Origin: a virus
Lineage: Duplodnaviria > Caudoviricetes
Strand: one strand, 5' to 3'
DNA length: 53,729 bases
IMG/VR virus record: IMGVR_UViG_3300036846_000650
Location: 1-53,729 of that record
Under the pieces are notes generated by a model that saw nothing but the letters and a program-made list of their open reading frames with translations, did no database searches and was not told the origin of the DNA. Shown in pieces: positions 24,714 to 49,429 of this stretch (positions are counted from its first letter, which is position 1; every line of letters starts with the position of its first letter). The translations under genes and the position numbers were made by a program.

Positions 24714-25433
24714 ATGAGCGAGTCGCTTGGGTCGAATATCCCGCCAGAGACGATCCTACACTGGATACACGAATTGTCGCGCTCCAAGTTGGCCTGCGAC
24801 GAAGCCAACGGCCGGCACCGCGCCAACGTCAAGCGCGCCAAGGCAGAGGGCTTGCCGGTGGAGGCGATCACCGAGTCGATCGCCTGGGCCCGACAGGACC
24901 CAGAGACCCGCCGGCAGCGGCTGATCTCGCGCATCCGGGTGGAGGGCATTCGCTACCCGGAAAATGGCGCGGCACTCAGCGAGATGCTGCCCAACTTGGA
25001 TATTCGGGTGTCTGACCGGATGCGCTACACCGACACGCTGTTTGACGGCGAACAGAAGGGCTATCAGGCCGGTCTGGGCGGCGCAGCGGCGGACGGCAAT
25101 CCCTATCCGCCGGGCTCGGAAATGGCGCAGCAGTGGCGCAATGGCTGGGGCCGCGGCAATGAGGTGCGCAGCGCTACCGTCGGGACCGAAGGCGGCCGGG
25201 TGGGCAACGCGGCGCGCCGGGTGCCGGGCCGTAAGCGGGCGGCACAGCCATCAATGCTGCCGGAGGAGTCGCCGGAGCCGAGACGCCCCCGTGGCCGTCC
25301 CAAGGGCAGTAAAAACAAGGCCGGGCCGAACTACCGCAAGGCCGCCGCCAAGAAGCGCGGCCGGGCCAAACGGGCGGCGCGCAAGATGTCCAACGTGGCG
25401 CAGTTTCCCAGCCCCGGTGAGGCGGCGGAGTGA
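24714..25433 (+). CDS. GapR-like + Rmf-fold + AT-hook protein
   Basis: AGGAGG SD; AKAEGLPV...RQDPETR (GapR-like); GYQAG...NPY...WRNGW (Rmf-like); PRGRPKGSKNK. Confidence 0.65.
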   Translation: MSESLGSNIPPETILHWIHELSRSKLACDEANGRHRANVKRAKAEGLPVEAITESIAWARQDPETRRQRLISRIRVEGIRYPENGAALSEMLPNLDIRVSDRMRYTDTLFDGEQKGYQAGLGGAAADGNPYPPGSEMAQQWRNGWGRGNEVRSATVGTEGGRVGNAARRVPGRKRAAQPSMLPEESPEPRRPRGRPKGSKNKAGPNYRKAAAKKRGRAKRAARKMSNVAQFPSPGEAAE

Positions 25434-35261: not shown

Positions 35262-35564
35262 CGCGGGCAGACGTGCCGGAGGTCGTCCTGACAATCGCCG
35301 TAGATCGGCGCTGGCACCGAGTTCACCACCAGCGCCATGATCACCACCAGGGCCACGATCACCCAGACCAGGATGTCATCGCCGTCTTTCATGGCGGGGC
35401 TGCCCAGTAAAGTATGGCGATAAATACGCAGATCACGGCGGCAACGCTGAGCCCGGACAGGACCACCTTGAGGATCATTCTGACCCCCATTTGATGAATT
35501 TTCCCACGAGCACCGGCAGCCAGATGCAGACCACCAGGGCGATACCCACCACCCACCAGATCAT
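35258..35564 (-). CDS. Three tandem tiny TM ORFs (35475-35564, 35389-35478, 35258-35392)
   Basis: Each start overlaps the previous stop as ATGA; 29, 29 and 44 aa, each with one hydrophobic helix. Confidence 0.55.
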
Positions 35565-36574
35565 CGGTCTGTCCTTTGGTAAAAGCTGCGGCCCAGGTGC
35601 ACCGACTCCTCGCGGCCTTCTTTGAGGTTCACCACCGCGTCGCGCACAAACACGGTGCCGCCGCCATGATACGCCGCCTTGTGCCGGACGTGGCCGCGGC
35701 GCAGGTGCGGCACCGGTGAGGCGTGGTGGCCGGCGGGAGCGCCCTTCGGGTGCGGCTGGCGGCGGGCGGTGAGCGCGGTCACGTAATCGCCACAGTGGAC
35801 GTGCCAGTGCGCCGGGATCGCCGGCTTGCGGTTCTTGGCCCGGGCCTTGTTCAGCCGCTCCGGCGCGGCGATCCGATCCACCGGCACGCCGTCGGTATTC
35901 AGCAACAGCAGCCCGGTCATCACCGGCTCGATCAGGTTGCCCATGGAGGTGGGCGGCGGCCTGCCATCGGCATCTTCGGCAGCGCCGTGCATGGCGGAGG
36001 CGATAACGATACCGCCATAGCGCTTGTTCGCGGCGTCGGTCGCGACAATGGCGCAGTCGCCCATAAGCAGCGAGCCCTTGCCGGCGATCTTGATCGCCTG
36101 GGCTTCGGCGATCAGGATGCTGCCCGGTGGCACCTTGCCATCCATCATGGTGTGCCAGTCGGCGGGGTCGACCACGTAGAGCGAGCCGCCCCCTTCCCAG
36201 CGATGAAAAATACAGTAAGGGCTGCGGAATGGATGGCCGATATGCCCGCCCTCAAACAGAGTAGCGGCGCGGCCCGACTCGCCGCCGATCACCGCGTTGG
36301 GCAGGAAGCCGAAGTCAAACAGCCGGCCCGCGGCTATCGCCTCCTCGAATACGCCCGGCAGCGAGGCGAACATCTTGGCGTCGCCTTCGAGCGTTATCTT
36401 TTTGCTATTCCTGGCGTGCCACGCCGGCACGATCATGCGGGCCTCCAGGACGGCGTTGCGGACTTGTTCGACGGTGGCGGTGGGCCATTCCTCCAGGGAG
36501 CGGAATAGCTTTTCGCTCATGTCGGCATCGAGCGCCGTCATCTCCTCCGGGCGCATTTGGGGCTGGTAACTCAC
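35561..36574 (-). CDS. Hypothetical protein with HASPxxHxRRGHxR C-terminal motif
   Basis: AAGGAG SD then GTG; HHASPVPHLRRGHVRH. Confidence 0.75.
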   Translation of the reverse strand: MSYQPQMRPEEMTALDADMSEKLFRSLEEWPTATVEQVRNAVLEARMIVPAWHARNSKKITLEGDAKMFASLPGVFEEAIAAGRLFDFGFLPNAVIGGESGRAATLFEGGHIGHPFRSPYCIFHRWEGGGSLYVVDPADWHTMMDGKVPPGSILIAEAQAIKIAGKGSLLMGDCAIVATDAANKRYGGIVIASAMHGAAEDADGRPPPTSMGNLIEPVMTGLLLLNTDGVPVDRIAAPERLNKARAKNRKPAIPAHWHVHCGDYVTALTARRQPHPKGAPAGHHASPVPHLRRGHVRHKAAYHGGGTVFVRDAVVNLKEGREESVHLGRSFYQRTDR

Positions 36575-36726: not shown

Positions 36727-36930
36727 TTGAGAAGTGAAACACCGAAAGAAGCCCAGCGTGATCGGCGTCGCATCTACCGGGAAGTAGACCGGATGGAGCG
36801 CGCACTGGCTGCGGTGTGGCTGGCCTGCGCTGAATTATCGCCGCTAGAGAAAATGGTTGTCTTGCAGTCGGCGCTGACCGAAGCTGTAGAAGCACACAAG
36901 CAACAGCACCCGCAGGTTGGCAGGAAGTGA
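36727..36930 (+). CDS. Hypothetical protein
   Basis: Helical ORF, GTGA-coupled to the next gene; start uncertain. Confidence 0.4.
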   Translation: MRSETPKEAQRDRRRIYREVDRMERALAAVWLACAELSPLEKMVVLQSALTEAVEAHKQQHPQVGRK

Positions 36931-37244
36931 CCGCCCGAAAATCCTACGCCGATCTCGATCCGATCGTGATCTATCAGATCGGCCAGTCGGAATATTCCCA
37001 GGTATATCTGGCCTGGAAATTCAAGCTCGGGGTCAACACCATCGCGCAAATTCAGCGGGACCAGCGGGCGCTTCACCGGCAGGATCACCGCTTCTCCCAC
37101 AAGGCGCGCATCCGCATCGTGGTGGGGATGTCGGAGGACCAGCAATTTCGCCAGAGCCGGCCGCATAGTCAGAGGCCAGCGGATCACCCACAGAGCCTGA
37201 CGCAGATCGCGGTGCCGCGACCAAAACTTTACACAGATAACTAG
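36927..37244 (+). CDS. Hypothetical protein, possible HTH remnant
   Basis: SQVYLAWKFKLGVNTIAQI is HTH-like. Confidence 0.4.
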   Translation: MTARKSYADLDPIVIYQIGQSEYSQVYLAWKFKLGVNTIAQIQRDQRALHRQDHRFSHKARIRIVVGMSEDQQFRQSRPHSQRPADHPQSLTQIAVPRPKLYTDN

Positions 37245-37312
37245 CTGCAACGGAAATTGCCAAGATGAATTGAGCGATTTCAATAAGTTGCAAAACTGGT
37301 GTGATTCTTGCA
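37228..37312 (+). promoter_or_regulatory. Sigma-54 promoter with IHF-like site and TTTACA enhancer half-site
   Basis: TGGTGTGATTCTTGCA at 37297-37312 (GG-N10-GC); TTTCAATAAGTTG at 37278-37290 (one mismatch to WATCAANNNNTTR); TTTACA at 37228-37233. Confidence 0.65.
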
Positions 37313-37367
37313 CTTGGTGTCCGCGCCCCAACTCCGGGGCCGCACACACAAGGGACACCAACTGATT

Positions 37368-38078
37368 ATGCGACAGCTACTGCTTACCGGCGCTGCACTG
37401 GCGGCGCTCACCATTGGAGCCGGGACGGCGCACGCGGCGCTGGTATCACTCGGACCCAGCGCGGGCACCGAAGGGCTCACCTACACGCTGGAGTCCATGG
37501 CGACCGCCAATCCGCTGGTCGAGGAATTCGCCCTCACCATCACCGGCGAGAATACCGCAGCCGACCTGGAAGGTGGCGTCAACGCGCACCGCACCGGGAT
37601 CAACGCGATTGCCTTCAACACCGTGTCGAAGAATAATCCGGCGTCGGGCACCATGTTGTCCACGACCATCAACGGCGTCACCAAGACCTCGCCGAACACC
37701 GGATTTACCTTTGTTCCCGGCGGGCTGGCGTCCTCCGGCTGCGATGGCAGCGGCGGCTTCTTCTGCTTCGATAACACGGCGATCCCGCCGATCCCGGCCT
37801 CGCCCGACATCACCGGCAAGGTGACCCTGGTCTTCAGCGCCACGCTGGACGCCGGCAGTTCTTGGGCCAACTACACGACCGCGTTCAAGATCGACTGGGT
37901 GGGCCCGGGCACCAACAACTTCAACTTGGTGTCGCTGGATATTCCGGTGAACACCGACTGCCCGGACTGTGGTCCTGGCACGCACAGCGCGCCGGAGCCG
38001 GCCTCGTTGGCCATCCTGGGCGTCGGCCTGCTTGGCCTGGGCGTCGTTACCCGGCGCAGCCGCCGGTCAGCCTCCTAA
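37368..38078 (+). CDS. PEP-CTERM sorting domain surface protein 1
   Basis: Signal peptide ending AHA; APEPASLAILGVGLLGLG-RRSRR C-terminus. Confidence 0.92.
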   Translation: MRQLLLTGAALAALTIGAGTAHAALVSLGPSAGTEGLTYTLESMATANPLVEEFALTITGENTAADLEGGVNAHRTGINAIAFNTVSKNNPASGTMLSTTINGVTKTSPNTGFTFVPGGLASSGCDGSGGFFCFDNTAIPPIPASPDITGKVTLVFSATLDAGSSWANYTTAFKIDWVGPGTNNFNLVSLDIPVNTDCPDCGPGTHSAPEPASLAILGVGLLGLGVVTRRSRRSAS

Positions 38079-38081
38079 CTG

Positions 38082-38130
38082 AGGGGGGCGGGCCCGGTTC
38101 GCTTGGGAGGCTTCCCGGGCCTGCCTCCCT
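38082..38130 (+). other. Long intergenic hairpin between the PEP-CTERM genes
   Basis: AGGGGGGCGGGCCCGG pairs with CCGGGCCTGCCTCCCT (16 bp including two G-U). Confidence 0.6.
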
Positions 38131-38163
38131 TGGGGACTTCCTCCCATAGGCAAAGGAATATCC

Positions 38164-38715
38164 ATGCGTAAGCTCTTACTCTCCACGGCTCTGATCGGTG
38201 GTTTTGCCGGTCTGGCCAACGCCGCCCCGATCGCCGCTGGCAGCGAACTCAACGTGATTGGCGGCGCGCAGTTCAACGCCACCACGATCACGTCCAACAC
38301 GCCGGCCGGGCTGGCTCCTGATCAGACCGGCTCGTTCGCGGCGTTCATCGCGTGCTTGTCCTGCGTGACGGTCAACGCGGCCAGCTTCACGTACTCTCCG
38401 GCGGTGCAGACCGGCCTGCTGTTCACCATCACCGAAGGGTCGTTGGTCGCTACCATCTCGGTCGATGCCGGCGGCATAGCCACACCGGGGATCAACTCGC
38501 TGGCGATCAATGCCCCCGCCACCTTGACCATGACGGGCTTCTCCGCGACGCCGGGCCAATTTGTTTGGACAATCAATCAGTTGGGGCAGGAAGTTGGCTC
38601 GTTTTCTGCGACCGCTGATGCTTCCGCGGTGCCGGAGCCGGCCAGTCTTGGTCTGCTGGGTGTCGGCCTGCTTGGTCTGGCCGGGATCACCGAACTGCGC
38701 CGTCGGCGCAGGTAG
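38164..38715 (+). CDS. PEP-CTERM sorting domain surface protein 2
   Basis: Signal peptide ending ANA; VPEPASLGLLGVGLLGL...RRRRR C-terminus. Confidence 0.92.
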   Translation: MRKLLLSTALIGGFAGLANAAPIAAGSELNVIGGAQFNATTITSNTPAGLAPDQTGSFAAFIACLSCVTVNAASFTYSPAVQTGLLFTITEGSLVATISVDAGGIATPGINSLAINAPATLTMTGFSATPGQFVWTINQLGQEVGSFSATADASAVPEPASLGLLGVGLLGLAGITELRRRRR

Positions 38716-38881
38716 ATTCCACACCACCATCGTGGCGGTGTAGACGCGAAAGGGTGGCCGTCGACTCCCTGGTGGGTCGGCGGCCGTTCGTGTCCCGAGC
38801 CGGCCAAGTGCTGCGCATCGTCGCGGTCTTCCTATTCTACCTTGTCATGCTCTTGTTGCTTGTGTGGTGGATGGCGGCCAG

Positions 38882-40717
38882 ATGAAAATCCGCATCACCG
38901 GTCGGTTCGACATCACGGTGGAGGTGCCCATGGGAAAGCCGCCAGAGCCGCCCGGCCAGGGCGGGACACCTCCGGGGCACGGCGGGACGCCTCCCGGACA
39001 GCAGCCCGAGCCGCCCGATCCCGGCATCCCGACGCCACCGGACCGACCACAGCCCATCCCACCCGAGCCACCCGACATCGAGGAGCCGCCGCCGGACATC
39101 GAGATCGAGCCGCCGCCTGTCGGGAGTATGCAGGCGCTCGTGATGCTCAGCGGCGTGAACTACGTGTTCAACGAGGCGGACGCGATCGACATCGGCTCCT
39201 ACGTGCACCCACACGGGCGCTTCACCATGGCCTGCCGGCGCGGCACCCTGCCGTCCTGCCCGCTACGGGTGGACTTCCGGCGCATCGATGGCTGGCAGTG
39301 CATCATCTTCGAGACCGGCGACCCGATGGCACCGGAGCCGCTCAATCTGCCGCCGTATGAGGTGCAGATCGTGGACGACGCCGGGGCGTTTCATCCGGTC
39401 CAGGTGCCCGACCAGTGGGCCTACAGCCGGTGGCGCTGGCAGTCCGGCAAGTGGCCGCTGGAGCTTCTCACGGTGGAGGACCTGACCACCGAAGGGCTGG
39501 TGCCCAACTACGACGCGGACATGACCGGCGGCACCGCCCATCCGCTGCCGCTGGCGACCTACGAGCCGATGGGCCTCGCCGGGCTCACCGCCAACATGCC
39601 CAACACGGGTGGCCGTTCGGATATCGGTCTATTCACGGATTGGGGTGGCGAATATCTCTGCACCCAGTCGGAGACCGCGCTGGCCTCGGTGCTGGCGCAG
39701 GCGGAGGCAGGCGGGACGATCCCGTGGATGATGCGGGACCTGGGCACCGGCGCGCCGCTCGATCTCATGAACGATTGGAAGTACGCGACAATCTATTGGG
39801 ACCCGAGCGCCAATCCCTACATTCCGAGCGCCAAGGACACCGGCATCTCGATCGACACCTCGCACCAGCCGGCGCTGGCTTATCTGCCGCTCCTGCTGAC
39901 CGGCGATCCGTATCACCTGGAGACGCTCCAATGTCAGGCGAATTTCGCCTTCCTGGAGACGCCGCGGAATTGGAATGAGGGTCAGGTCTGGCAATGCCCG
40001 GGAACTGGCCAGACTCGCAGTATGGCGTGGAACATCAGGACAATAGGGTCCGCGCTTGCGATGACACCGGAGGAGGTGCCGTCCTGGCTGTTGCCCAAAG
40101 CGGTGCTGCACCAGATGCTGGCGCAGTGCGTCAAGGGCACCAATGCCATCATGCAGGAAGGCGGGAACAATCGGACGGTCCTGCACGCGATCGACGTGGG
40201 CCTGCCGGGCGGCGACGAAGGTGCACCGGGCGGCTATTACCCCTCCAATTGCTACAGCCGTTGCTGGCAGACCAGTTTTTTCGCGCAAGCGGTCGGATGG
40301 CTCGCGCAGCTTCACCGGGAATTGGCACCGTTGGCCGGCTATATCGCGAAAAACATGATCGCGCGCGCCGACGGGCTGCACTGGGACAGCACCTATCCGG
40401 CTCCCTACGCCCTGCTGTTGCGGCCGGCCTACGAGGCTGATTGGTTCGATAGCTGGCAGGTGTGCTGGGAGTCCAACGCGGCCATCCTGGGCGTGCCTGC
40501 GGCCCCGCTGTCCAATCAGCTTAAGGCGGTGGGGGACTACGAAGGCGGCTTCTACGGCGGCCTCGCAGCCCTAGCACAGGGGCACGCCGCTGGGGTGTCG
40601 GATATCCCCGCCGAGATCAACGCGGCGCTCGATCATTACAGCGGGCAGGTGGCTGCGCTACTGGCCACCGGCGGGAATAATTATCTCACCTGGAATAACG
40701 CCATCGCGCTGCCCTAG
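38882..40717 (+). CDS. Large hypothetical protein: Pro-rich linker plus probable alpha/alpha-barrel enzyme-like domain
   Basis: MPNTGGRSDIG, DTSHQPALAYLP.LLTGD.YHLE.LQ and QTRSMAW motifs; start 38864 or 38882. Confidence 0.7.
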   Translation: MKIRITGRFDITVEVPMGKPPEPPGQGGTPPGHGGTPPGQQPEPPDPGIPTPPDRPQPIPPEPPDIEEPPPDIEIEPPPVGSMQALVMLSGVNYVFNEADAIDIGSYVHPHGRFTMACRRGTLPSCPLRVDFRRIDGWQCIIFETGDPMAPEPLNLPPYEVQIVDDAGAFHPVQVPDQWAYSRWRWQSGKWPLELLTVEDLTTEGLVPNYDADMTGGTAHPLPLATYEPMGLAGLTANMPNTGGRSDIGLFTDWGGEYLCTQSETALASVLAQAEAGGTIPWMMRDLGTGAPLDLMNDWKYATIYWDPSANPYIPSAKDTGISIDTSHQPALAYLPLLLTGDPYHLETLQCQANFAFLETPRNWNEGQVWQCPGTGQTRSMAWNIRTIGSALAMTPEEVPSWLLPKAVLHQMLAQCVKGTNAIMQEGGNNRTVLHAIDVGLPGGDEGAPGGYYPSNCYSRCWQTSFFAQAVGWLAQLHRELAPLAGYIAKNMIARADGLHWDSTYPAPYALLLRPAYEADWFDSWQVCWESNAAILGVPAAPLSNQLKAVGDYEGGFYGGLAALAQGHAAGVSDIPAEINAALDHYSGQVAALLATGGNNYLTWNNAIALP

Positions 40718-40851
40718 AGCATCGCGCGGATCGCCACCATGACGCCACCGGCGATGATGCCCAGGATACCGACGATCACCAGCACCGCGACCGCGGTGAC
40801 CATCGCATATTGCCGGCGGTTAAGCTTCGGCTCTCTGGTGTCCGGGATCAC
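40714..40851 (-). CDS. 45-aa single-TM peptide
   Basis: GTGA overlap with the DUF968-like stop; long hydrophobic helix. Confidence 0.45.
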   Translation of the reverse strand: MIPDTREPKLNRRQYAMVTAVAVLVIVGILGIIAGGVMVAIRAML

Positions 40852-41144
40852 AGGAAGTACTTCGCGGTGTCATCGCCGATGGCCGGCGAGGTCTGGGCCA
40901 GGAGTCGGGCGATGCCGGTGAGGTCGAGCTTGTAGTGCGCCTCGAAGGTCATCCAGCCCATGAGGTGGCCCTCGGAGTGATGCTCCGAGCACAGCGGCAC
41001 TGCCCACCGGTCACTGGGCTTCATCCCGGTGCCGGCGACGCTGGCGGAGCGGACGTGGTGGGCGTGGACGCCGATCGCGACGTGGCAGCCCGGCACGCAG
41101 CAGGGCAGCGACCTGACCCAGCGCAGGTGAGCCGGCGACTTCAT
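40848..41144 (-). CDS. DUF968-like Zn/His (HNH-related) protein
   Basis: HLRWVRSLPCCVPGC, HAHH and GMKPSD..AVPLC..HH motifs. Confidence 0.85.
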   Translation of the reverse strand: MKSPAHLRWVRSLPCCVPGCHVAIGVHAHHVRSASVAGTGMKPSDRWAVPLCSEHHSEGHLMGWMTFEAHYKLDLTGIARLLAQTSPAIGDDTAKYFL

Positions 41145-41611
41145 GGGCCGCACTCAATGGTCCGGTCACCGGAGAATGGCGCTACCCGAGTCTCGCACTC
41201 GCGGGTCTTGCCGTCCTGGGTGGTGATCACGGTGTGGCTGCCGCGGTCGAACGGGTTGGCGTAGTTGCGCCCGCTGAAGGGTTTGCCGTCGGTGCCGACG
41301 CCCTCGAAGCTGTAGCCGCGATCGAACGGGTTCTGCCGGGTCGTCACAGACTGGGCCTGTGCGCAGCCCAGGAGCGCGCCCAGGAGCGACAAGAACAGGA
41401 TGGCTAGTAGCACGCGGCCGGTGAAGCTGAGCCGTCCACGGGGCTCCTGGGCCGTCTGCGGGCCGATCTCGATCTGGATGCGGATACGCTGCCGGCGCGG
41501 TGGCTCCGGCGGCTTGGGCGGCGGCAGGATGTCGGCCTCCGGGCTGATCGCCAGCGGGCCTAGCAGGTAGTCGAAGGAGCCGCGCTGGGGCGGCTTGCGG
41601 GTGTCGATCAT
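41141..41611 (-). CDS. Membrane-anchored hypothetical protein
   Basis: TM segment ending LLGC; NPFDRG repeated twice. Confidence 0.6.
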   Translation of the reverse strand: MIDTRKPPQRGSFDYLLGPLAISPEADILPPPKPPEPPRRQRIRIQIEIGPQTAQEPRGRLSFTGRVLLAILFLSLLGALLGCAQAQSVTTRQNPFDRGYSFEGVGTDGKPFSGRNYANPFDRGSHTVITTQDGKTRECETRVAPFSGDRTIECGP

Positions 41612-41970
41612 CAGCGGTCTCCATCAAATGGGATGTCGGCGGGCACGGCCGGCTGCGCAGCCGGATACCGGCCCCAGCGCATCATGGTGGTCCACACCTC
41701 CGAATAGGCATCGTGGCGGTCGTCCTCCAGCACGCTGTCCTTGAAGTTGGGATAATCGATCCGATCCACTTCCGCGGCCATGGCGCGCTTCACCAGCTTG
41801 CGCCCGACATAGGCGCGGAATTGGTAGTCGCGTTGTGGCGTGGCGGTCACCCGGATGCCGGGGAACACCGTCAGGATATCGGCCTCACGCCGGGCGCGCA
41901 CCAGCAGCAGGTTGCGGCGCTTCGGCAATTGCACGATCGACAGGAAAGCGTCGTTAATAAATACCCACAT
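41611..41970 (-). CDS. Conserved phage hypothetical protein
   Basis: MWVF...FLSIV, LLVRAR, DYQFRA and IDYPNFK motifs. Confidence 0.8.
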   Translation of the reverse strand: MWVFINDAFLSIVQLPKRRNLLLVRARREADILTVFPGIRVTATPQRDYQFRAYVGRKLVKRAMAAEVDRIDYPNFKDSVLEDDRHDAYSEVWTTMMRWGRYPAAQPAVPADIPFDGDR

Positions 41971-42117
41971 TTATTCGTCCTCGTCGTCAAATAGGGAAGC
42001 TGAATCGGGATCGGCCTCACGCTCGCAGCACGGGCAGAACGAGGTGCGCGGCGTGTCGAGCGTCTCGTCCCATTCGTTCGGGCATTCCTCGCAGTAGAAG
42101 GTGTAAGTGCGGGGCAT
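41971..42117 (-). CDS. 48-aa Zn-ribbon protein
   Basis: MPRTYTFYCEEC...CPCC; abuts both neighbours. Confidence 0.6.
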   Translation of the reverse strand: MPRTYTFYCEECPNEWDETLDTPRTSFCPCCEREADPDSASLFDDEDE

Positions 42118-42118
42118 C

Positions 42119-42310
42119 TCAGCGCTCCTGCACGGTGAAGGTGAACACCACCTTGGAATTCGGTCGGTTCATCGAGCCGTTGAGCGCCGCGGCCTCCCAT
42201 TCGGCGGTGGCCTTGTCGGTCCACATCTGGATGGTGCCATCCTTCTTGAGCCATGCCGCACGGGAGCCAGTCCGCCCGCCGGAGACTTCGCACCAGATGC
42301 TGTAGATCAT
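42119..42310 (-). CDS. Hypothetical protein
   Basis: AAGGAG SD; IWCEVSGGRTGSRAAWLK. Confidence 0.65.
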   Translation of the reverse strand: MIYSIWCEVSGGRTGSRAAWLKKDGTIQMWTDKATAEWEAAALNGSMNRPNSKVVFTFTVQER

Positions 42311-42474
42311 CACTCGGTCTCCTTCAGGGCTTTGGCCATCCAGGCCGCCCAGACGGCGGTAGCGGCATCCTCGCGGGCCTGTGGCAGATCGCGCAGGACA
42401 GCCGCGTAGGCGCGCTGTGCGTCCTCGTGAGCCGCCTTGCGGATGGTCTGGGGGGAGCGGGCGGAGACGATCAC
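42310..42474 (-). CDS. Hypothetical protein (54 aa)
   Basis: GTGA and TGATG coupling at its two ends. Confidence 0.5.
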   Translation of the reverse strand: MIVSARSPQTIRKAAHEDAQRAYAAVLRDLPQAREDAATAVWAAWMAKALKETE

Positions 42475-42671
42475 AGCACCACCGCCCGGCCCAGGCGGGC
42501 CATGGTGAGCCCGGACAGCACGCCCAGGATGCCAAACGCGGTGGCGATGGCGAGCACCGGCACCGGCGCGGGATCGATCAGGAAGGAGCCGATCGCGCAG
42601 TCGATGGCGGCGACGAAGAAAGCGATAATCCCGAAGTAGATCGGGGTCAGGATTTTTTCGGAGAGTTTCAT
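42471..42671 (-). CDS. Two-TM small membrane protein
   Basis: First gene after a leader-hairpin promoter; two hydrophobic segments. Confidence 0.6.
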   Translation of the reverse strand: MKLSEKILTPIYFGIIAFFVAAIDCAIGSFLIDPAPVPVLAIATAFGILGVLSGLTMARLGRAVVL

Positions 42672-42687
42672 CGGGGAGTTTCCAAAT

Positions 42688-42763
42688 TCGCCAGAGCGGA
42701 ATTGCCCCGGCGACACCTGGAAATATATTCAGGACGGTCGATTAAATCAAGCGAAAAATACGC
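42688..42763 (-). promoter_or_regulatory. Early promoter plus CAAUUCCG leader hairpin, copy 1
   Basis: TTGATT-17-TATATT; stem TCGCCGGGG/CTCTGGCGA. Confidence 0.75.
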
Positions 42764-42776
42764 AAACAGCGAATTT

Positions 42777-43391
42777 TCACGATGGCCGGATTATCTCCTG
42801 TTGCTTGAATAGCCCGGCGGCTTCCAGACGCGCGCGCAGGGCCACCCGCTCCTCCTCCGGCAATATCCGGTCCGGCAGGATATCGTGCATCCGGCCTCTG
42901 CCCACGCCTGAGTCAAAGGGCTTGATGCTGGCCGGCTTGCCGTTGGCACCACGGACGATCTCACCGGTGGTGATGTCGGCGTGCCGCTCGCCGGTCGCAT
43001 CGTCCAGCCATGTGGTCTGCACGGCCACGATCTCGATCCGATCCTCAGCTTCGGCTGTCGGCACGGCCACGATCCTGGCCTCTTTTTCGGCTTTGGTCTC
43101 GCCGGGGATCGGGTGGATACTGCGCATCCAGGCTTCGCCGATGAAGGTGAGGCAGTTGGCTCCCATGGCGAGGCAGAGCAATTTCACCGCATTCATGGTG
43201 TTGGCCTTCTCGTGGTCATTCTGCCACGTGGCGGGCACGATATTGATGGCGGTGGCGTTGCGCAGCACGAACATCGACACGACCGTGCCATCGGTCAGGA
43301 TCATCTGCTTGGCAAACTCGAAATCGAATCTGATCTGCTTGGCATAATCGAGCTTGCCATCCTTGCCGGTGGCGGTGTGGGGCTTGCGCAT
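42777..43391 (-). CDS. Hypothetical protein
   Basis: AAGGA SD; FIGEAW...EDRIEIV pattern. Confidence 0.7.
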   Translation of the reverse strand: MRKPHTATGKDGKLDYAKQIRFDFEFAKQMILTDGTVVSMFVLRNATAINIVPATWQNDHEKANTMNAVKLLCLAMGANCLTFIGEAWMRSIHPIPGETKAEKEARIVAVPTAEAEDRIEIVAVQTTWLDDATGERHADITTGEIVRGANGKPASIKPFDSGVGRGRMHDILPDRILPEEERVALRARLEAAGLFKQQEIIRPS

Positions 43392-43404
43392 CAGGAAATT
43401 CCTT

Positions 43405-44061
43405 TCAATACCAAGTGCGGACCGCGGCGACCATGTAATCCTGGCCTTTATCCGCGGGGTCATCCTTGACGGTGAACGCCTCCACGGTGCCGTGCCAGTG
43501 GCCATCCGAGATCGGGGTGGGAATACTGAAGCGGCTGTTCGCCGCCAGCTTCTGAATCAGATCGGGGTGGTCGCTGATCGCCTTCATGTCGCGCAGCAGC
43601 GCCTCCTCGGTCCGGTCGCGGCCACGATCGAGCCGGCGGGCCAGGGCGTGGTAGTTGAAATTCACCAGTGGCGCGCTCTCGATCTTCAGCCCGATGTTGC
43701 GGCGGCCGATCCGCACCGTGTGCATGGCGACGGTCAGGTCCTGCTCCTCCCATTCCGCCCGAAACTGGGTGCCGGCGGACAGCCGCACCTCGCGGAGTTC
43801 GATCCCGCCCGGGAGCTTCGTGGTAGTGCCGGCCCAGCGGAATTCCAGGGCGGAGGCATGGTAGGATGCGAGCAGCGCCTGGATGTGCGCCGGGCGGAGG
43901 CTGCGGCCTGGATAGCGGTCCCATCGCGCGGAGGCGACTTCTATTGCCCCCTCGGTGATCTCCCGCCAGCGGTTGCCGTCGGCCATCACGCGTTGGCGCA
44001 GGGCGCGCACCCGGCCGAGCGACTCCCGGGTGATCGGGGCGCTCTCGAAGTAATCGTTCAC
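43405..44061 (-). CDS. Hypothetical protein
   Basis: HALARRLDRG...AVRTW; GTGA-coupled. Confidence 0.7.
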   Translation of the reverse strand: MNDYFESAPITRESLGRVRALRQRVMADGNRWREITEGAIEVASARWDRYPGRSLRPAHIQALLASYHASALEFRWAGTTTKLPGGIELREVRLSAGTQFRAEWEEQDLTVAMHTVRIGRRNIGLKIESAPLVNFNYHALARRLDRGRDRTEEALLRDMKAISDHPDLIQKLAANSRFSIPTPISDGHWHGTVEAFTVKDDPADKGQDYMVAAVRTWY

Positions 44062-44300
44062 GGCCGCTCCTCCCGGCGCTGGCGCGGGCCACTGTCCTTC
44101 GAGCCCCTAGGACGGCCTCGGGGCCGCGGTGGGCCCTCTGGCGGCGTCCGGGTAGGTGGTAGGCCGTCCAGCTTGGCCAGGGCGCGTACGTGCCTCACAA
44201 GGGCATATGCGCCGTGCCGCCAGATCAGCCGGCGCAGCGTCCGGGTGGTCTCGGTGGAGAGCCCCGGGATCGGTGGCTTCCAGCCCGCTCGCAACGCCAT
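44058..44300 (-). CDS. Small AT-hook protein
   Basis: AAGGAG SD; RPRGRPRGSKD. Confidence 0.6.
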   Translation of the reverse strand: MALRAGWKPPIPGLSTETTRTLRRLIWRHGAYALVRHVRALAKLDGLPPTRTPPEGPPRPRGRPRGSKDSGPRQRREERP

Positions 44301-44312
44301 GGGAAGTCTCCT

Positions 44313-44453
44313 TTAAGCCGGTGGCAGCCGCTTGGCGGTCACCACGATTTCTGGAATGTCCTGTTGCGGCGGGAGGGAGTATTCCCAAGAGAGGAATACC
44401 CCAGCGCCGACAAGCAGGTGCAGGATCAGCGAGATCAGGGCCAGCTTGGCCAT
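44313..44453 (-). CDS. 46-aa TonB/TolA-N-terminus-like mini-protein
   Basis: TGATG-coupled; MAKLALISLILHLLVGAGVFLSWEYSLPPQQDIPEIVVTAKRLPPA. Confidence 0.55.
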   Translation of the reverse strand: MAKLALISLILHLLVGAGVFLSWEYSLPPQQDIPEIVVTAKRLPPA

Positions 44454-45094
44454 CACGCCACCCCCTCGCAGGAGAGGGCGGCGGTGGTCTTGGCACCCCA
44501 GGGTAGTCCGAAGTGCTCAGCGCAGTCCGGGCCATACCCGACGGCCTTGCTGTCCGGGTGGGTCAGTTCCTTCTGGCAGAAGCAGCAGTGATGGGTGGCG
44601 ACGCCGTAGGCTGCCGCGGTGCCGGCCGGGTCGTTGGCCAGCACGGCGAGGAGCCCGGCCACCGCAAGCTGGGTGGCATGGTCCACCTTGCCCGACACCT
44701 GCCACGCGCCGTCCGGGCTGACGCGGCCATACCAGACGTTGGAGCCAAACTTGCCGCCGTCGGTGACGTTCACCGTGCCCGGCTGCTTGGCCTTCTCGCC
44801 CGCGAGCGACAGCACGATCTTGCGGCCATCGTTGAGCTTCAGGGCGATCTTGGGGAATGCCTTGTGCTGCTTGGCGGCGGCGAATAGCGCGATGACGCCA
44901 GCGAAGTTGCCCACCTCGACCGCGGGAGCGGCTGCCGGCGCGGTGCCGGTGGCGCGCTGCGCCAGCTTCATGATCCAATACATCTGCTTCTCGGAGGGAT
45001 GGCTGGCCGACAGCAGGGAGTGGGCGAAAGCCTGATCCTTGGCGGGCAGGCTGGCGAGGTTTTCGGTGAGGGTGATGATCGGGTTGATTTCCAT
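44453..45094 (-). CDS. DUF6011-type Zn-binding protein
   Basis: CCFCQKELT.PDS..VGYGPDCA motif. Confidence 0.82.
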   Translation of the reverse strand: MEINPIITLTENLASLPAKDQAFAHSLLSASHPSEKQMYWIMKLAQRATGTAPAAAPAVEVGNFAGVIALFAAAKQHKAFPKIALKLNDGRKIVLSLAGEKAKQPGTVNVTDGGKFGSNVWYGRVSPDGAWQVSGKVDHATQLAVAGLLAVLANDPAGTAAAYGVATHHCCFCQKELTHPDSKAVGYGPDCAEHFGLPWGAKTTAALSCEGVA

Positions 45095-47297: not shown

Positions 47298-47825
47298 TTA
47301 GCCGGTCGCTGGCATGGCCGGCATCTCCGGGTAGGCCGCGAGTGTCGGCCGCCCCTTCCTGCGGTGGCGTTGGCGCTCCACGTAAGTCGGGCTCTTGTCG
47401 TCCCATGAGTCGCGGACCGCCTCGTTCAGTCCCTTGTGGGCTGCCTTCGGCATCCGGTGGTCCCGGTAGCCCTGCTTGATCACCCGCAGGTAATAGTCGC
47501 TGGGCGGCATGATCCCGGTGGAGTTCATGACGTAGATCAGCATCTCGGTTTCGCCCATCGGGGTGCGCTTGATCTGGATGTATTCCTTGCGATACAGCCC
47601 GGAGCCGATCCCCTCATAGATGTCCAGCGCCACCTCGCAGGTTGGCGTGATCCGCCACACCCCGCCGTAGCAGATTGCGCCGGGCTCCTGGATGACATCG
47701 GCCACGCCGCGGAAGACCAGCCGCCAGTTGGCCAGCCGCATCCGCCCGAGCGGCTCCGCGTCCGGGCAGCGCTTCGCCATCTGTTCGACATTCAGGTTGC
47801 TGCCGTAGGCAAACATCAGCGCCAT
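47298..47825 (-). CDS. Gamma-glutamylcyclotransferase (GGCT/AIG2-like)
   Basis: FAYGSNL...QM..RCP, LD.YEG...Y and PS..Y..VI..GY motifs. Confidence 0.92.
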   Translation of the reverse strand: MALMFAYGSNLNVEQMAKRCPDAEPLGRMRLANWRLVFRGVADVIQEPGAICYGGVWRITPTCEVALDIYEGIGSGLYRKEYIQIKRTPMGETEMLIYVMNSTGIMPPSDYYLRVIKQGYRDHRMPKAAHKGLNEAVRDSWDDKSPTYVERQRHRRKGRPTLAAYPEMPAMPATG

Positions 47826-48265
47826 CACACGACTCCTTCATTGCCGTAGGCGGTCATGCCCAGCGCCAGTGCGGCGCACGCCAGTCCGATGTAGTGGGGA
47901 ATACGCTGGCCTGTCTCCCAGCCTGCCAGGGAGTTTCTGGAGCAGCCCAGCATCTTGGCAGCCTCAGCCTGCGAGTAGCCCATCCGTTCCCGCCACACGA
48001 TCAGCGTAGGCCCGTCCAGGGCCGCGTTGGGCCGGGTCGGGCTTGGCTTCTCAGGGGGCGTGATGGCCACCTCGCCGGGGCTGTCGTTGTCCAGATCGAT
48101 CGCGATGTGACGGAAGGCGCGCACTCCGTGGCGGGAAACTTCCGCCCGCTCAGCAAAGCCAAGGGTGCGGAAGATCGCGCAAAGCTGGGCCTCGTTCATG
48201 CCGGTGTGCCATGCCATGCGGCCAAGATCGGCCGCGGCTTCTGTGGTGAGGGTTTGTGTATTCAT
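47825..48265 (-). CDS. XRE-family HTH protein
   Basis: WRERMGYSQAEAAKMLGCSRNSLAGWETG..IP..I.LAC.AL. Confidence 0.85.
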   Translation of the reverse strand: MNTQTLTTEAAADLGRMAWHTGMNEAQLCAIFRTLGFAERAEVSRHGVRAFRHIAIDLDNDSPGEVAITPPEKPSPTRPNAALDGPTLIVWRERMGYSQAEAAKMLGCSRNSLAGWETGQRIPHYIGLACAALALGMTAYGNEGVV

Positions 48266-48318
48266 TTGAGCCGGTTCCTTTCGTGTTGGAGCATATATGC
48301 GCTGATGCCTGCCCTAAT

Positions 48319-49344
48319 TCAAGCAGCCATCGCCATTGAGCTAGAAAGATGCGCCGTCCGGGCCGTGAAGAAGGCCCGTTCGGCATCGTCAAGGCCGAGC
48401 TTGCCAAACAGCCCTTCGAGGCTGGCTGGAGCTTCGGTGGAGGCAGCCGCGGCCTGGGCGAAGTACCTCACGACGCGGCCGGTCCGCTGGGTGGTGTAGG
48501 CCAGCCCGCACTCGCGAGCCCGCTGCGGCAGGGAGATCGACGGCCAGCCGGTGGCTGCGCACGCCTCCTCGCGGGTCACGCCCTCAGTGCGGAGCATCAG
48601 TTGCCCGACAAGGTGGCCCTTGCTGCCCAGGCGGGCGCGGTTGATTGCTCCGCCGCCGGTAGCGATGCCGTTGCCGGACTTGGCTGCCCATACCAGCTTG
48701 AGGCAGAGCAGTATCCAGTTGCGCACCTTGGCGTTGTCCAGCGTGCCCTGATGCTGGCGGAATTCAACGGTCTGGTGGGCGCGGTAGGCACAGAGGTTGA
48801 GCTTGGTATAGCGTGCCGTGTGGCCTGGGGGCGTCAGTGCCCGGATGAGCCCCTCCACGCTGTCCGTCCGATCGATGGTGCGGAAGGGGACGTTGGTCAC
48901 CGAGCGGCAGTAGGACGCAGCGCTGGCGCGCCGTGACGCCGCCATGAAGCGGTCGATCACCGGCTCGAAGTGCGCGTAGAGCTTCAGCAGGTTGCGGAAA
49001 AACGCTATGTTGCCGTTGCCGTGGCCGACGCCGACATGGACGTGGGTCCCGCACAGCTTGGACACCGTGCAGCCCATGTCATTGAGGAGCGCCAGCACCG
49101 TGGCGACCGTCTCCAGGCCGGCCTCGCCTTGCAGGACGGGAGAGACGAATTCCGCCCCGCGGGCGTAATCGTTGAGCGAGCCGTCAGTGACGATCTTCCA
49201 CCATGTGCGGGTTTGGTGGTTGTAGCTCTCGGGCCGGCAGTCGATGCCCTGATTGGTGAGCGCCATCGCCGCCGCGCCATGGGAAAGGCCGACGGGGAGG
49301 TAGACTTCAAACTCCACGCCGAAGGTTTGGTCGAGGTAGGCCAT
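48319..49344 (-). CDS. Putative amidoligase (Amidoligase_2) with DUF3489-like insert
   Basis: TFGVEFE, WKIVTDGSL, EFVSPVL, CGTHVHVG, RY.KLN and TVEFRQHQGT motifs. Confidence 0.92.
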   Translation of the reverse strand: MAYLDQTFGVEFEVYLPVGLSHGAAAMALTNQGIDCRPESYNHQTRTWWKIVTDGSLNDYARGAEFVSPVLQGEAGLETVATVLALLNDMGCTVSKLCGTHVHVGVGHGNGNIAFFRNLLKLYAHFEPVIDRFMAASRRASAASYCRSVTNVPFRTIDRTDSVEGLIRALTPPGHTARYTKLNLCAYRAHQTVEFRQHQGTLDNAKVRNWILLCLKLVWAAKSGNGIATGGGAINRARLGSKGHLVGQLMLRTEGVTREEACAATGWPSISLPQRARECGLAYTTQRTGRVVRYFAQAAAASTEAPASLEGLFGKLGLDDAERAFFTARTAHLSSSMAMAA

Positions 49345-49382
49345 CTGTCGAAGCTCCATGTGGTGGATCAGTGTGCGGCACA

Positions 49383-49429
49383 AATATGCGCAATCACCAC
49401 GGGATAGTCAAGCACTAATTTGCGCAATC
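49383..49429 (-). promoter_or_regulatory. Early promoter with GATTGCGCA direct repeats
   Basis: TTGACT-17-CATATT; GATTGCGCA(A/T)ATT upstream of the -35 and overlapping the -10. Confidence 0.65.

Follow-up and report, generated by a model that had tools for sequence, protein, structure and literature searches.

Tandem PEP-CTERM genes in a tailed phage downstream of a candidate host-type enhancer and sigma-54 promoter

Described PEP-CTERM systems and the phage cassette

PEP-CTERM proteins and the PrsK/PrsR/sigma-54 switch are tied to the formation of exopolysaccharide, flocs and biofilms, and to our knowledge they have so far been treated as chromosomal traits. On the phage side, lambda bor and lom are morons that encode lysogenic-conversion surface proteins. 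The locus described here touches both fields, being a cassette of two tandem PEP-CTERM genes, PEP1 and PEP2, with an upstream control region, carried by the tailed-phage record IMGVR_UViG_3300036846_000650 (IMG/VR; Caudoviricetes). This is a linear record of 53.7 kb (positions 1–53,729) with an estimated completeness of 74%, and the whole stretch is referred to below as the window. The favoured reading, to which a probability of about 0.6 is assigned, is that the cassette constitutes phage cargo wired into a host regulon, with host RpoN and PrsK/PrsR switching it on and the host exosortase sorting its products.

The closest described control arrangement is the PEP-CTERM box (Haft, 2006; PMC1569441). 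Motif 1 there is a 17-nucleotide (nt) element ending in TTTACA, which represents the predicted PrsR site, and motif 2, also of 17 nt, carries GG at -24 and GC at -12 (GG-N10-GC). The spacer between the two motifs has a mean of 62.8 nt (standard deviation (SD) 10.6, range 32–92), motif 2 precedes the start codon by a mean of 71 nt (SD 38.5, range 23–221), and single-gene operons account for more than 65% of the published cases. For a floc-forming member of the protein family, PepA of Aquincola/Zoogloea, the -24/-12 promoter has been mapped and an enhancer predicted (PMC9850573). RpoN dependence of the PEP-CTERM gene was shown experimentally in Aquincola, where overexpression of pepA led to less soluble exopolysaccharide and restored the flocs.

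Set against the box as given in PMC1569441, the window shows the same TTTACA-ended motif, the same spacer of approximately 63 nt, the same GG-N10-GC element and the same distance of approximately 55–70 nt to the start codon, and it carries the same kind of cargo, with a signal peptide and a PEP-CTERM tail. It differs from that description in three respects, since the box is found in a phage genome that contains no prsK, prsR, rpoN or exosortase gene, it precedes two tandem cargo genes where the published cases are mostly single-gene operons, and the left half of its motif 1 is unconserved when judged against an alignment of relatives. The individual parts are therefore known. The combination, tandem exosortase cargo in a tailed phage with a candidate host enhancer, an IHF-like site and a sigma-54-type promoter, recurring in many viral contigs and often beside a putative glycan-active enzyme, is new as far as our searches reach. 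Literature searches found no paper on PEP-CTERM genes of tailed phages or on a phage-borne PEP-CTERM box, and a 2026 preprint (10.64898/2026.09.15.751708) mentions a virus-like element of Dehalococcoides that has a PEP-CTERM domain.

PEP1 encodes a protein of 236 amino acids (positions 37368–38078, plus strand) and PEP2 one of 183 amino acids (38164–38715, plus strand), the latter preceded by the ribosome-binding site AAAGGAA, 7 nt before its ATG. Read from the ATG at 37368, PEP1 begins with MRQLLLTGAALAALTIGAGTAHAA and ends with APEPASLAILGVGLLGLGVVTRRSRRSAS, while PEP2 begins with MRKLLLSTALIGGFAGLANA and ends with VPEPASLGLLGVGLLGLAGITELRRRRR. In both, the signal peptide as read from the sequence consists of a basic residue after the initial methionine, a hydrophobic core and a candidate cleavage motif (AHA-A in PEP1, ANA-A in PEP2), and in both the tail follows the order of Pro-Glu-Pro, a hydrophobic stretch and an arginine cluster. 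An earlier note on this DNA, made from the letters alone, had described the pair in these terms, and the family models agree. PEP1 scores 18.9 bits and PEP2 20.3 bits on TIGR02595 (cut-off 16), and on Pfam PF07589 (cut-off 20.7) PEP1 passes with 24.3 bits and PEP2 falls under the threshold with 18.8 bits.

Outside the terminal signals no named full-length family fits either protein. Homologs number 127 for PEP1 and 74 for PEP2, the named ones for PEP2 belonging to Acetobacteraceae and Falsiroseomonas, and in the PEP1 alignment a PEP-type tail terminates all 33 of 33 rows. The AlphaFold2 model of PEP1 (predicted local distance difference test (pLDDT) 79.3, predicted template modelling score (pTM) 0.73) depicts a beta-sandwich followed by a C-terminal helix, for which Foldseek returns generic sandwich matches only, of the adhesin, cohesin and carbohydrate-binding-module-like kinds, with template modelling (TM) scores of at most 0.47. 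For PEP2 the comparison used the model held in the protein Atlas itself, where the nearest clusters are small PEP-CTERM and VPDSG-CTERM proteins together with one all-viral cluster (TM 0.73). Both proteins give weak, partial matches to the PepA model NF033554 (20.2 bits for PEP1, 26.1 bits for PEP2), and as these lie far below the 80-bit cut-off the two are not PepA orthologues, forming instead two unnamed families of their own.

A strong, GC-rich hairpin lacking a U-tract separates the two genes (38079–38133, plus strand). The RNA fold of 38076–38170 reaches -51.5 kcal/mol (z -2.8), with 3 of 200 shuffles as stable, and the structure could act as an attenuator or as an RNA stabiliser. After PEP2 lies a second hairpin, also without a U-tract, that is a weak terminator candidate (38743–38794, plus strand), the fold of 38713–38830 giving -54.4 kcal/mol (z -1.9) with 12 of 200 shuffles as stable. 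The cassette as a whole follows the replication genes and precedes a minus-strand gene block, and phage genes flank it on either side.

The candidate switch and its recurrence among relatives

Three elements precede PEP1 on the plus strand. The first is a candidate enhancer corresponding to motif 1 of the PEP-CTERM box, a predicted PrsR site, formed by the 17-mer GCGACCAAAACTTTACA at 37217–37233, in which TTTACA occupies 37228–37233, and it overlaps the final codons of an upstream open reading frame (ORF) at 36927–37244. The second is an IHF-like site, TTTCAATAAGTTG, at 37278–37290, with one mismatch to WATCAANNNNTTR, which we take to be the IHF core consensus, and it starts 19 nt before the TGG of the -24 region. 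The third is the sigma-54-type -24/-12 element TGGTGTGATTCTTGCA at 37297–37312, with GG at 37298–37299 and GC at 37310–37311. A 63-nt spacer (37234–37296) extends from the end of TTTACA to this element, and a further 55 nt separate the element from the PEP1 ATG. All three elements are where the earlier note had placed them, and its proposal that they form a sigma-54/IHF/enhancer promoter holds in so far as order and spacing match the published architecture and the elements recur upstream of relatives, but not for the left half of motif 1, nor for GG-N10-GC as a signal in its own right. On the minus strand, at 37246–37262 and so between the TTTACA element and the IHF-like site, there is a near-perfect sigma-54-like word, TGGCAATTTCCGTTGCA, with a spacing one base too long, which may be due to chance or belong to the enhancer region.

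The window contains 1113 instances of GG-N10-GC where 1170 are expected, and as its count does not exceed chance the pattern is uninformative alone; the stricter TGG-N8-TTGCW, with 4 occurrences against 3.4 expected, is likewise not above chance. Discrimination was obtained with a weight matrix trained on 10 sites that precede genes of bacterial and metagenomic relatives, from which the window and the viral loci were left out. With this family-trained matrix the site at 37297 scores 12.8 bits and ranks first among 107,428 positions on both strands, with p = 0.0067 against 4,770 control windows. TTTACAC has a single occurrence in the window, and the relaxed IHF pattern WWTCAANNNNTTR has 3 matches there against 0.6 expected. 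A simple scan of 37245–37367 found no sigma-70-type site.

The same elements recur among 49 distinct upstream regions of relatives, drawn from genomes, metagenomes and viral contigs. Sigma-54-like sites, defined as GG-N10-GC plus a match at 5 or more of the 8 consensus flank positions, are present on the coding strand in 12 of the 49 and on the opposite strand in 1 of the 49, and TTTACAC is present in 8 of the 49 (0.43 expected from word counts). The relatives' sigma-54 sites are preceded, at 53–75 nt, by a 17-nt element of the form yGTCGg-N7-TTTACA. In 10 of 18 related loci the 65-nt stretch ahead of the -24 element contains an IHF-like site with at most one mismatch, where shuffles lead to an expectation of 1.0, and the offset of the site is nearly constant in the window and in the loci L050, L079, L107 and L015. 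An 18-nt variant of the enhancer, TGTAAAGCGnnCnTTACA (TGT-N12-ACA), stands beside the 17-nt form or replaces it upstream of the L015 and L027 genes, in L001 (5134–5151) and in L102, with two tandem copies in both L015 and L027.

Among viruses, an alignment-based scan recovered the PEP1 family in 29 further viral loci, several of them near-identical to each other. The earlier note had proposed a survey of phage genomes for PEP-CTERM genes with upstream -24/-12 motifs; here the promoter score reaches p ≤ 0.05 in 8 of 23 distinct viral loci and p ≤ 0.01 in 6 of 23. L098, for example, carries TGTCAGATAATCTTACA followed after 51 nt by TGGCCCGCTGCATGCA, and L099 carries the box element TGGCATAGCTATTGCA. 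The viral setting is evident from the neighbours, as tail-fibre, terminase, primase/helicase or nucleotide-metabolism genes lie within 5 kb of the cassette in L100, L108, L110 and L121, including thymidylate-synthesis and dCMP-deaminase genes that flank it in L100 and L108, and in L004 the cassette adjoins Gam-like and Erf-like genes. Tandem pairs predominate among the viral cassettes, their members coming from three families (PEP1, PEP2 and a third) in variable order; in L108 a PEP2 homolog with 74% identity precedes a PEP1-like gene. No relative was recovered when viral contigs were scanned with the single sequences of PEP2, of a 617-amino-acid ORF that follows it in the window and of the ORF at 35561–36574, and tblastn searches of 50,697 deposited phage records with PEP1 and PEP2 gave no match. 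Among 49 phage loci related to the window by primase/helicase, distant relatives of at most 52% identity with little synteny, none has a PEP-tailed ORF within 10 kb, a pattern that would suit an accessory gene set.

Approximately ten viral loci (L111, L113–L117, L119, L120, L122 and L123) couple a PEP1-type domain to a different tail, TPLPAAVWLF...RRRKK, which resembles VPLPA-CTERM with 16–21 bits on TIGR03370, below the cut-off of 25.35. These loci have no sigma-54 box, which fits the view that sorting tail and switch follow the system of the host and its exosortase class, a lead rather than a result.

A search of 185,579 species genomes for PEP1 relatives returned 5 loci only, from Rhodopila, an Acetobacteraceae metagenome-assembled genome (MAG), a Pseudomonadota MAG, Pseudolabrys and one weak match. 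Ordinary chromosomal contexts surround the genes in L005, L006, L007, L018 and L062, for example between argS, a dGTPase gene and ftsZ, while the contexts of L011 and L027 look phage-like. In four MAGs with PEP1 relatives, RpoN is present in 4 of 4, PrsR above cut-off in 3 of 4 and an exosortase in 2 of 4. The Rhodopila MAG encodes XrtA, an XrtA-system glycosyltransferase, PrsR, PrsK and PrsT, and its PEP1 relative follows a textbook box, TGTCGGGAAATTTTACA, 74 nt and TGGCGCGTTTTTTGCT.

Probable host-controlled cargo versus a decaying relic

According to the favoured reading, the cassette would belong to a tailed soil phage as an accessory, moron-like module encoding two Sec-exported PEP-CTERM beta-sandwich proteins, and it would have been captured from an Acetobacteraceae-like host chromosome together with its native control region in undamaged form. 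Given a host cell in which PrsK/PrsR and RpoN are active, the TTTACA element would be bound by PrsR and the DNA bent by IHF at the IHF-like site, and sigma-54 polymerase at 37297–37312 would open the promoter to transcribe PEP1 and then, past the strong hairpin, PEP2. The products would be exported by Sec, handled by host XrtA and finally located at the cell surface or within the slime. As the earlier note had observed, the window contains no exosortase, RpoN or activator gene; searches of the 74%-complete record for an exosortase, a Sigma54_activat domain, rpoN, prsK and prsR found none. Since the phage encodes neither PrsR nor RpoN, transcription would depend on host RpoN and PrsK/PrsR, and given that the control region resembles a copy of a host-type enhancer and sigma-54 promoter, the host slime and surface circuit probably controls the phage cargo. 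By analogy with PepA of Aquincola, the phage proteins may alter how slime is held at the surface, possibly with some benefit to phage or host, while the receptor masking, exclusion and persistence proposed in the earlier note are guesses.

The resemblance to lambda bor and lom lies in the self-contained accessory unit, with a candidate promoter and an end hairpin, inserted between phage modules and encoding predicted envelope proteins. The cassette differs from these morons in its promoter class, sigma-54 with an enhancer-binding protein, and in products predicted to depend on a host sorting enzyme. If the favoured reading is true, the locus would clearly exemplify a virus that has connected its genes to a two-component and sigma-54 regulon of the host, and would offer a testable route by which phages influence aggregation and surface traits among bacteria of soil and sludge.

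Several observations weigh against this reading. Scored against the relatives' sites (yGTCGg), the left half of motif 1 reaches -0.7 bits and ranks 315 of 107,426, and for this reason PrsR binding may be weak or lost; the comparison was made with our own alignment of relatives. In the -24 flank, TGGTGT stands in place of the consensus TGGCAC. Cassette and upstream replication genes share an orientation, so that read-through transcription is possible. A promoter-like score is lacking (p > 0.1) in 11 of the 23 viral loci, among them L001/L095, the closest viral relative with DNA in hand (64% identity), which has no usable -24/-12 element. Two of the four MAGs show no exosortase match, which in incomplete MAGs is no proof of absence. 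No tyrosine integrase was found in the 74%-complete record, so that a temperate lifestyle and expression from a prophage are uncertain. With regard to host assignment, comparison of the portal protein with 401 sampled Acetobacteraceae genomes under stricter search settings yielded distant matches only, of at most 29% identity, in 7 genomes.

Some of these points lead to the rival that survives best, namely that the cargo genes are real while the box is a decaying relic, expression arising from phage promoters or read-through independently of RpoN and PrsR. The lost left half of motif 1 and the co-orientation with the replication module suit it, as do a flank only moderately near consensus, with 5 of 8 flank positions of the -24/-12 element matching, and L001/L095, which keeps the enhancer-like palindrome TGTAAAGCGCGCTTTACA in spite of having no usable promoter element. 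A relic is nevertheless judged unlikely, as the site at 37297 is still the best sigma-54-like match of all positions scored, the spacing and the IHF-like site are retained, the intergenic region yielded no sigma-70-like promoter in the simple scan, and a minus-strand gene at 35561–36574 breaks the plus-strand operon upstream.

Host control of the cassette could also be one instance of a wider pattern. Tentatively, and with more doubt than confidence, soil phages of Acetobacteraceae-like bacteria may routinely carry matrix-conversion modules in which exosortase cargo is combined with a host enhancer and sigma-54 switch, the tail being exchanged according to the exosortase class of the host (PEP-CTERM or VPLPA-CTERM-like) and the cargo often paired with glycan-degrading enzymes. 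By such means a phage would join the host decision on slime, floc or biofilm formation and alter which phages adsorb.

Neighbouring genes, the phage record and its assembly

Directly downstream, the ORF of 617 amino acids (38864–40717, plus strand; 611 amino acids from the ATG at 38882) encodes a putative glycan-active enzyme, assigned by its structure model. In the AlphaFold2 model (pLDDT 86.6, pTM 0.85) a Pro-rich, disordered N-terminal stretch precedes a beta-sandwich and an (alpha/alpha)6 toroid. Searches of Pfam, PHROG and NCBIfam gave no family for the protein, which has at least 237 homologs (E ≤ 0.001) with many invariant Trp, Arg and Asp positions, and the nearest clusters in the protein Atlas are 52–70% viral. 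VIA-align superposes the toroid on the GH88 structure 4q88_B with Z 13.5 (root-mean-square deviation 4.0, 288 residues aligned), which is in the range where toroids match by architecture alone, and on GH105, YteR and GH76 structures at Z 12–13; the PL26 lyase 5xq3_B aligns with Z 9.3 over residues 1–611, again possibly a match of architecture only. Foldseek returned nothing for the model at E ≤ 0.001. A homolog follows the cassette in L108 as well, and the ORF is possibly part of the cassette module. PEP cassettes have right-handed beta-helix proteins (PF13229), in some cases with long Pro-rich tails, as neighbours in L001-type loci (L001 6879–8015), L011 (1904–3013), L101, L103/L104 and L010. 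Together with the L108 homolog these neighbours make a link between the cassette and polysaccharide plausible, and a putative glycan-active enzyme as the next gene points to a role in the matrix.

These neighbours would also suit a role of the cassette in lytic infection rather than in lysogenic conversion, its products acting with the putative glycan-active enzyme to bind or reorganise host exopolysaccharide and thereby aid release or stop progeny from sticking to dying cells. The negative integrase search of the 74%-complete record and the thymidylate-synthesis and dCMP-deaminase genes around the L100 and L108 cassettes agree with such a role. It is nonetheless improbable, as a timed lytic programme would hardly be expected to use a promoter dependent on a host two-component system, a hairpin lies between PEP2 and the enzyme gene, and the record includes an HTH_3 repressor-like gene (47825–48265).

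The remaining content of the record is that of a tailed phage. Tail and baseplate genes occupy 1–20 kb, RecT and an exonuclease 21.5–25 kb, and a methyltransferase, a replication initiator and a primase/helicase 28–33 kb. A minus-strand block at 40.8–49.4 kb encodes HNH, DUF6011, DUF932, GGACT, helix-turn-helix (HTH) and amidoligase proteins, and the large terminase and portal genes close the record at 50.4–53.7 kb. Only one public DNA run contains the stretch, possibly the source sample of the window, and no RNA run containing it is listed among public runs. In the independent Logan assembly a contig of 12,197 nt spans 36774–45000 with 0 differences to the window, by which the cassette is physically joined to the downstream phage genes. 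Depth is 10–13.5 throughout 31–45 kb and the GC content is uniform across the cassette region. The assembly is interrupted at 36774–36794, where the 12,197-nt contig (depth 13.5) and its neighbour of 2,230 nt (depth 10) share an overlap of 21 nt, with phage genes on either side.

A chimeric assembly or mis-binned host fragment bearing a cassette from a bacterial chromosome, a concern already raised in the earlier note, is scarcely credible, for although the assembly break with its short overlap and the existence of chromosomal relatives could be read in its favour, the contiguity without differences, the even depth and GC content, the phage genes on both sides of the break and the phage hallmark genes beside the family in several other viral contigs speak against it. 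The break itself may be a sign that strains vary at the left end of the module.

Two further features of the record have counterparts in other cassette-bearing phages. The phage protein at 24714–25433 (plus strand) contains a ribosome modulation factor (RMF) domain (PF04957; 32.5 bits, cut-off 27.9), and so does a protein of a second PEP-cassette phage, L004 (1171–1872, minus strand; 32.2 bits). Within the minus-strand block, consecutive genes at 47298–49383 encode a GGACT/AIG2-like gamma-glutamyl cyclotransferase, an HTH protein and an Amidoligase_2 enzyme, and a GGACT gene lies near the cassette in L099 as well.

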